From Gracilinanus agilis (taxonomy: Eukaryota): DNA of 63,857 nt. Where the stretch lies: contig NC_058135.1 in assembly GCF_016433145.1 (NCBI RefSeq), positions 226,906,238-226,970,094 on the forward strand, in the 5' to 3' direction. A program made the position numbers and the translations under genes. The notes beneath the pieces are model-generated. The model saw only the letters and a list, made by a program, of their open reading frames with translations, made no database searches and was not told the DNA's origin. Within the stretch, counting starts at the first letter, position 1. The number at the start of each line of letters is the position of its first letter. Positions 54,301 to 56,490 of this stretch are shown here, in pieces.

Positions 54301-54793
54301 AAGGCACTAGAATTCAGGGGGACAGGGAAAAGCTTCCCGTAAAAGGTGGGACTCTATCGAGGATAGGACATGAAGGAAGCCAGGGAAGTCAGGAGGCAGG
54401 AATGCAGAGAGAGAGAGAGAGCATTCTAGGCGAGGGAGACAGCTAGTGAAAATGCTCAGATGACATGGCATGTCTTGTTCAAGGAACATCAAGGAGGCTG
54501 GTTTTTCACTCCCAATTGTAGGAGAAAGGGGGAAGGGGGTGCTGGTGGTAAGCTTTTAAGAACACTGGGAGTTGAGGGGGTGGGGAACAGGTTAAGAATG
54601 ATAGCCCTGAATGACAAAAGATTTTATACTTTCGCCATTAGAATAACAGAACTGACACGGTAAGAGCTTACCTTTAGGAAAATTGCTTGGATAGCTAGGT
54701 GGAGGACAGCCTGGAGCAGGGAGAGACTTGCATCAATTTTTCAGGTATGAGGTAATGAGGGTCTCTGCCAGGGAGAGAAGGTGGGGTATTTGA

Positions 54794-55927
54794 TTAAAAA
54801 AAAATTTTTTTTTTATTATTAATGGTCTGTGGATGCCCTTCCTGATAGGATCTCTATGAGCTTGGTGTAAATGCTGCCTCTGTAGAGCTCAGAGAATCTC
54901 TTCGGCTTGAGTATGCAAGGATTTCTTCTTTTGTGACACTATAGACTGTCATAATTGCTTCTTCATGCTGGTGCAAGACTGTGTTGTTTCAGGGGAGGTT
55001 GAGACACAGCATCTTCTACTTCTTTATCCATTAAGTTGGATAGTGATTCTACGGTTAACCTATAATCCCTGAAAGAGATCTCTTTTTTCCTTTTCTGAGC
55101 TTTTGCAACTTTGCACAGGTTCAGATATTTAACCGGTGCCAGTGCTTCATGGCCCAGGAGCTTCAGGGCTTTTATATACGGGAAATTATCCACAGCGTGT
55201 TGTGCTATCAGCTGTTTTTCGGCATTTAGGAATGAACCCATCTCAGTTGCAACTCTAGGCAGCATGGCACCTCTTGAGAGTCCTTTATCAATAAAGCCTT
55301 TCATAAAGACATATGGAGTCATCTGAGCATATTTGGCAATCAGCTTGACTTGTCTTATTAAAGCCTTTCCAGTTTCTTTTGTAGATTCATGATTCTGTAA
55401 TTCAAATAATGATTTAATAATGACTCTACTAGCCCTTCTCAGAAAGAGCCATTTGGATGCTTCTTTCATGTTTAGGAGAGGATCTATGTCAACTGGAGGA
55501 GTTTGAAGGCTTTTTATAACAGTTGTATACATTGCATTAAATCGTTTTGTGATTTGTGCCATAGGATTTCCTTGTGGCTTTCGAATAACATGATATAATA
55601 ATCCAAGGGTTAATTTAAGGATAACATTTTCTCTTGTTCTGTAATGACCATGTTGTCAGGAGTTCAGGGCATTTCTTGCCCAGATGTTTTGGGAACACCC
55701 CTTGGTTTGCTTGATAAATTTATTGGTCTGCCATCGAGTTCGTAAAGGGCAGGAAGCGATGTGAACAAAAAGTTAAGAACTATTGCAACTTCTTCTCCAA
55801 GAGTATATTTAACCACTTTGCTGAGTCCCTTAAGAGCTGTGGATTCCGATAACACAGCCTTATTCGGAGGTGGTAGTGCAATTGTTTTGGTGCCACCAGT
55901 CTTCCGTGAGTTTGCCATCGTGTCCTA
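54794..55927 (-). pseudogene. Endogenous bornavirus-like nucleoprotein element (EBLN), near full length, retroposed
   Basis: ORF pieces 55918-55664 and 55562-54963 plus a C-terminal piece ending TAG at 54856-54854. Motifs VLNFLFTSLPAL, AQITKRFNAM, RQVKLIAKYAQMTPY, FPYIKAL...LAPVKYLNL and AIMTVYSVT are colinear with recalled Borna disease virus N motifs SLVFLCLLIPGL, EQIKKRFKTM, DQIKLVASYAQMTTY, FPFLGAI...LAPRSFPNL and AIMKMIGVT. Flanked by direct repeat gggtatttga (54784-54793, 55928-55937); poly(A) at 54805-54814. Confidence 0.88.
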
Positions 55928-56490
55928 GGGTATTTGAGAGATATTGCAATGGTAAAATCAATAGGCCTTGGCAACAGATTGGGCAAAGAAAGGGGAAGAG
56001 TGACCCAGAAAGAGAGGAGATGAGGATGAGGACAACACCTAAAATATGAACCTGGGGGAACTGGGAGGATGCTGATGCTCTGGACAGGAACAGGGAAGTT
56101 TGAAAGAGGGGAGGGCCTGGGGAAACAACTGAGTTCAGTGTTGGGCATGTTGTGTTTGAGATGTCTACAGGACATCCGGTTCAAGATGTCCAATAGGTAG
56201 TTGGAGATAAGATACAAGACTAGTCAGCAGAGAAGTTGGGGCTGGATAAGCAGATTTGAGAATCATTAGCATAGAGATGATAACAATCCATGGGAGCTGA
56301 TGGAAAAGTATAGAGGAAGAAGAGAAGAGGGTCCAGGATAGAGCCTTGGGGGATCCCCACTGTTAGCTGGCATGACCTGGATGAAGATCCAGCAAAGGAG
56401 ACTGAGGAGCAGTCAGATAGTTAGGAGGAGAACCAGGAGACAGTGGTGTCTTGAAAACCTGGAGAGGAGAGTATCAAGAAGAGGAGGTCA

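Follow-up and report, generated by a model that had tools for sequence, protein, structure and literature searches.

The window, a 63,857-nt stretch of the Gracilinanus agilis genome (contig NC_058135.1, positions 226,906,238 to 226,970,094, forward strand), contains a bornavirus nucleoprotein (N) copy which we read, with a probability of roughly 0.92, as a cultervirus-like N mRNA running from the viral start signal S1 to polyadenylation at the termination signal T1, retroposed by LINE-1 into an old LINE with a 10- (or 8-) bp duplication and subsequently decayed. This reading is carried by the homology to N, both ends, the duplication, the uninterrupted host repeat, the damaged frame and the occurrence of related copies elsewhere in the genome. 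The initial annotation had proposed a whole bornaviral N mRNA retroposed with a duplication into an older LINE, and the N homology, the duplication and the viral ends support that proposal. The insert is a known locus of a known kind. In the 2024 catalogue it is row N=120 of supplementary file 10, sheet 'Page 9' (226961209-226961883, bornavirus EVE), with EPQ11842.1, a Myotis brandtii nucleoprotein, as best match (E 7e-69); the row gives BLAST coordinates only, and no ends, duplication, signals or genus (PMC11521997). EBLNs retroposed with a start signal, a tail and a duplication have been on record since 2010, when the human EBLNs, which have the same anatomy, were ascribed to LINE-mediated insertion (PMC2912400, Table 3). 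Because this anatomy is long known and the locus is catalogued, the finding as first given matters little; its value lies in the detail of the signals and in the sister copies.

Along the minus strand, the duplication and the leader are followed by the ATG at 55918, some 1100 nt of coding-like sequence, A10, T9AA and the second copy of the duplication. In that order, the host repeat and the insert are composed as follows.

55938..56330, minus strand: right part of the host LINE-like repeat, continuing the left part (profile positions 508-907)
55928..55937, no strand: target-site duplication at the 5' end of the insert, an exact match to 54784-54793 and native repeat sequence in the profile alignment
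55919..55927, minus strand: 9-nt 5' leader TAGGACACG, with GAC at 55924-55922 in agreement with GAM, the start motif of culterviruses
55664..55918, minus strand: first open piece of N, 84 aa from ATG to a premature stop, with 41% identity to P0001 residues 1-83, Met on Met
54963..55655, minus strand: 230-aa open stretch of N, in register with its relatives from about 55628, matching Pfam PF06407, BoDV-1 N structures and P0001 (59% identity)
54854..54988, minus strand: short shifted-frame piece of N, matching P0001 314-338 (E 5e-4), whose TAG the initial annotation took for the stop
54819..54870, minus strand: C-terminus of N with the true stop TAA at 54821-54819; the terminal CAT TAA is also found in L002 and L003
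54805..54822, minus strand: termination signal T1 (TTAAT, overlapping the stop) and the A10 poly(A) remnant at 54814-54805, by likeness to L002 and Wuhan sharpbelly bornavirus (WhSBV)
54794..54804, minus strand: T9AA between tail and duplication, of unexplained origin, spanned gap-free by one contig of run X1
54784..54793, no strand: target-site duplication at the 3' end of the insert, an exact match to 55928-55937
54345..54783, minus strand: left part of the host LINE-like repeat (profile positions 11-478, E 1e-37)

The identical 10-mers said to flank the element, GGGTATTTGA, were found as exact copies at both positions; they are the only two in the whole window, and the match stops there on both sides. 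The probability of such a duplication by chance is 1.4e-6 per offset pair, or about 0.001 when a shift of 15 nt is allowed at each end. The 9-nt leader and the ATG are also as described. At the 3' end the A10 is present, starting 4 nt after the N-frame TAA, but the insert does not stop there as had been claimed: 11 further bases, T9AA (54804-54794 on the minus strand), had been overlooked between the tail and the repeat. The TAG followed by a 40-nt 3' UTR was a misreading, since the TAG at 54854-56 closes an off-register piece of 44 aa, and the last piece of N returns to the main frame, that of the 230-aa stretch, and ends CAT TAA at 54824-54819. TTAAT and the A-run are both kept, indicating that the window copy ends at T1. 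The insert thus has a viral transcription start at its 5' end and a termination signal with poly(A) at its 3' end, with T9AA beyond. One contig of run X1 covers 54430-55980 with one differing letter and no gap. Because this contig crosses the region unbroken, a mis-join at the insert junction is unlikely; X1 is possibly the source sample, and the contig is not independent support. In runs X2 and X3 (organism B) most of the insert was uncovered and no empty-site joint appeared among the 15 listed of 436, which is not proof of absence.

The host repeat, which we take to be L2, was compared with a profile built from 29 other copies of it. The flanks matched this profile on both sides, while the insert gave no match. 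When the flanks were joined without the insert they aligned with no gap at the junction, and the score of the joined site was 77.8 bits when one 10-mer was kept, 70.0 when both were and 60.9 when neither was. Since a single copy fits the repeat best, the 10-mer is duplicated host sequence, and the claim that removal of the insert restores a continuous repeat is borne out. Immediately to the left of the duplication, about 18 nt of the profile are missing from the window's copy of the repeat. The right flank belongs to a repeat of high copy number (3816 candidates genome-wide, 40 of them scored), and in contigs of other repeat copies that align rightwards from 55931 (100, 89 and 86 contigs in three runs) the leftward continuation resembles the window's left flank. 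Reverse-transcriptase remains were seen as weak RVT_1 matches in 7 of 62 open stretches from repeat copies, all below the curated cut-off. Within the same host LINE, a short SINE-like A-tailed element lies at 56494-56680 (plus strand), with aggaggtca repeated on both sides.

The events would have run as follows. A cultervirus-like bornavirus would have infected an opossum ancestor, and its monocistronic N mRNA, begun at S1 and polyadenylated at T1, would have been reverse-transcribed, presumably by the LINE-1 machinery, where an old LINE copy had been nicked; second-strand repair would have duplicated 10 (or 8) target bases, and the inserted copy would then have decayed. The LINE-1 endonuclease motif, as we assume, is TT/AAAA; the target here is TC/AAAT, which fits loosely, and only with the 8-bp duplication. 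T9AA between tail and duplication is unexpected under simple target-primed reverse transcription. It would be explained by a compound integration: T9AA(TC) would stem from a second short cDNA, from a template switch or from a fold-back at a later time, and only the 8-mer would be true duplication. We regard this as unlikely, though not negligible. The 8-bp duplication would start at the endonuclease-like TC/AAAT, the extra bases and the tail form a near-palindrome (inverted repeat I22), and the empty site is identical for either duplication length. On the other hand, the two additional matching bases would require a 1-in-16 chance, and a second A7T8 run, at 60772-60786 of the window, also stands without evident insertion nearby. 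Moreover, the published poly(T) variants formed by twin or dual priming place the T-run 5' of the sense element, and such priming was rejected for T9AA because the T-run is at the wrong end (PMC2837659).

Homology to bornavirus N was found over the gene, and the 230-aa stretch matched Pfam BDV_P40 (PF06407; E 1.7e-18) and BoDV-1 N structures (E 1e-11). The claim of a whole N mRNA holds for length, the copy being full-length (ATG and TAA lie about 1100 nt apart), but its frame is interrupted by one premature stop (55664-66) and three shifts, near 55625, at 54965-54990 and near 54870. On the plus strand at 48790-51329 of the window lies a two-exon homeobox gene, presumably LBX2 (Pfam Homeodomain, E 1.4e-20), which ends about 3.5 kb from the insert. 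Co-option of the copy, whether to supply non-coding or small RNA or to serve as a regulatory element for this homeobox gene, is improbable: the 230-codon stretch remains open, but with about 0.05 new stops arising per million years in 1100 nt this is not surprising, and the one stop and three shifts leave no intact frame of the kind seen in co-opted EBLNs. Koala bornavirus L fossils yield piRNA-like reads, whereas few small RNAs mapped to the koala N fossil in the data reported (PMC8449507). The window copy is most likely an inert pseudogene.

Four or five copies related to the window insert were found in the genome. The sister copies sit at unrelated sites and have 65-70% DNA identity. They and the other N fossils of the genome are listed here.

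L048:3372-5256 (G000:C6:109,617,371-109,619,255), minus strand: read-through copy with N, T1/S2, a P-like ORF, a 40-codon ORF that ends in AGTTAA + A8, and a 14-bp duplication
L049:2725-3839 (G000:C2, about 155.59 Mb): full-length N copy with a 9-bp duplication, the common leader motif and a poly(A) tail
L051:3385-3963 (G000:C7, about 31.87 Mb): 5' half of an N copy, leader kept, 3' half and tail absent, 76% identical to L049, CpG largely kept
L050:3600-4340 (G000:C2, about 697.37 Mb): an older and more strongly decayed member of the lineage, with 57% identity in DNA along 533 nt
L052, L053 and L054 (G000:C2 62.1 Mb; C1 112.07 and 219.07 Mb): N fossils closer to orthobornavirus-type proteins

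L048 starts with AGGACACG directly after its 14-bp duplication (1 mismatch), L049 with TCTAGGACACA after its 9-bp duplication, and the half-copy L051 with GGGACACG. GGACAC(G/A) begins four of the five copies, the window's included (it is listed also for L048, L003 and L006); the fifth copy is L050, where the look-alike GACTCACTCT was dismissed as a start because it is located inside the gene. Since insertions at unrelated sites start within a few bases of one motif, that motif marks the 5' end of the mRNA. The copies keep 2-5 bases before GAC that differ among them, so the first transcribed base is not fixed by this comparison. That an older endogenous copy was the source, through its transcript or through DNA duplication, instead of the virus is very improbable in spite of the four related copies, as each copy has its own duplication and differing flanks, identity is just 57-70%, and the window copy, which has viral signals at both ends, exceeds its closest relative L048 in retained CpG and in the length of its open stretch.

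The uncatalogued L048 is a more interesting lead than the window locus. Its insert of 1885 nt (1.88 kb) runs on past the N stop as TTAACAAAAAACATGAC, the reading given at T1 for L002; at the corresponding place the T1/S2 of WhSBV reads AGTTAACAAAAACATGAA, with the N stop within the signal. The pattern TTAAY-A5-CAT-GAM is carried by L048 with A6. It has 16 matches in 3.7 Gb versus 23 for a reversed control, indicating that its position at the L048 stop codon is not chance. The GAC start comes directly after T1, as in culterviruses, and not upstream of T1 as S2 does in orthobornaviruses. The 790 nt after T1 are single-copy: a genome scan gave one match, the locus itself, and no further X/P copies, and tblastx over 16 loci gave one weak match of 16 residues. 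An ORF in this region is collinear with residues 61-145 of WhSBV P with a score of 58, reached by 3 of 2000 shuffles, although coiled-coil bias weakens the test. Past a stop, likeness to the C-terminus of P was also found (3/1000, the best of 12 frame-and-target tests, and weakened by the same bias). No X-like or G-like match to WhSBV was obtained, the tail showing no significant likeness to WhSBV G. Against longer proteins the P-like piece of L002 gave no homologue among 196 candidates, and its Pfam and Atlas matches were rejected as coiled-coil look-alikes.

L048 ends with AGTTAA + A8 about 190 nt beyond the P-like ORF. This end may stem from priming at an A-rich site inside a longer transcript. 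In its general plan, a 1.9-kb N-X/P read-through insert with tail and duplication, L048 resembles miEBLN/X/P-1 to -3 of Miniopterus bats; these are orthobornaviral, however, whereas L048 has a cultervirus-type T1/S2 junction (PMC10288550). The same paper describes read-through N-X/P fossils for orthobornaviruses and, in its account of earlier X/P fossils, limits them to a few carboviral P copies. No description of culterviral X/P fossils was found in the literature searched. With its P-like ORF, L048 can also serve as a probe for X/P fossils that go unnoticed in similarity searches.

The virus behind these copies was placed by its protein and by its signals. The window element is 58.6% identical to P0001, an intact N of 361 aa and the closest relative found; against fish bornavirus N the identity is 29-38%, against orthobornavirus-type N about 24-29%. 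The N also groups with bat and marsupial fossils. In a tree of 24 rows, chosen among the longer and named homology matches with two open stretches added, with short fragments and living orthobornavirus and carbovirus N left out, the window, L002 and P0001 formed a 100/100 clade within a 96/93 clade of fish culterviruses and skate bornavirus, and orthobornavirus-type N fell apart from it, the window copy and that N lying in separate 100/100 clades. The 96/93 clade (13 rows) is an open fork that includes skate bornavirus and does not settle the genus; 'cultervirus-like' is therefore justified and 'Cultervirus' is not. P0001 is known only from two contigs, neither longer than 3302 nt. The existence of P0003, a truncated relative with 89% identity, suggests that the P0001 lineage may be an endogenous family, the alternative being a living virus. 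A scan of viral contigs with P0001 gave 0 loci.

Culterviruses use GAM as start motif and TTAAY + A-run for termination (PMC12646013, PMC13293379, bioRxiv 2023.08.23.554433), and in two snake culterviruses the T1/S2 motif ends CAUGAC (PMC13293379, Table S5). The initial annotation held that both viral transcription signals are kept, and the GAC start and the TTAAT with its A-run confirm this against those motifs; its comparison with BDV is unsupported, as the N is nearer to fish bornaviruses and the signals fit the cultervirus motifs. The copies share with living culterviruses, for example WhSBV (L056), the GAM start, the N stop inside T1, S2 right after T1, an N of about 360 aa and frequent T1 read-through (PMC12646013, PMC13293379, bioRxiv 2023.08.23.554433). 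They differ in that N identity is only about 30% and that the living members reported are from fish, frogs and snakes. The human EBLN-1 to -4 are likewise whole N mRNAs with start signal, T + A-run and direct repeats, but they start with GAAC/GAAA, the start being expected 11 nt before the ATG, while in the window copy GAC precedes the ATG by 6 nt, the stop falls inside T1 and there is the extra T9AA (PMC2912400, Table 3). Culterviral fossils in mammals are already known, since 372 of 1465 EBLs are classed as culterviral in the preprint of Kawasaki et al. WhSBV did not replicate in the mammalian cells reported (PMC12646013). The ends of the insert are direct evidence, at the level of sequence, for the use of cultervirus-type signals by a virus that infected mammals.

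Tentatively, and at rather less than even odds, the window copy and its sisters may together preserve the transcription map of a mammal-infecting, cultervirus-like lineage, now extinct, which entered the opossum germ line at least four times over a long span (CpG observed/expected from 0.04 to 0.64), with L048 as its first X/P fossil. Living culterviruses, in the published accounts, carry X/P and G on one mRNA that ends after G. The end of L048 would then point to a virus with a termination signal after P, unlike every living cultervirus, and so with a different gene order or G content.

The CpG observed/expected ratio was 0.32 in the insert, 0.04 in the flank, 0.04 in L048, 0.41 in L003 and 0.60 in WhSBV N; L006, in seemingly GC-rich surroundings, gave 0.64. 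The difference between insert and flank indicates that the insert is much younger than the host repeat. At a rate of 0.13% per million years (PMC2912400), a stop is expected to arise about once in 19 million years, and the one stop, three shifts and perfect duplication would together put the insert very roughly at 10-35 million years. The catalogue contains L052, L053 and L054 and places two of these three in orthogroups, and the window locus in none of those given; none of its 27 rows with EPQ11842.1 as best match is from Monodelphis (PMC11521997). Both absences are weak evidence, because L048-L051 are absent from all 29 rows for Gracilinanus agilis in the same catalogue. Dating by orthologues is sound in principle, and the site, lying within a recognisable LINE, makes presence/absence dating across opossums easy.
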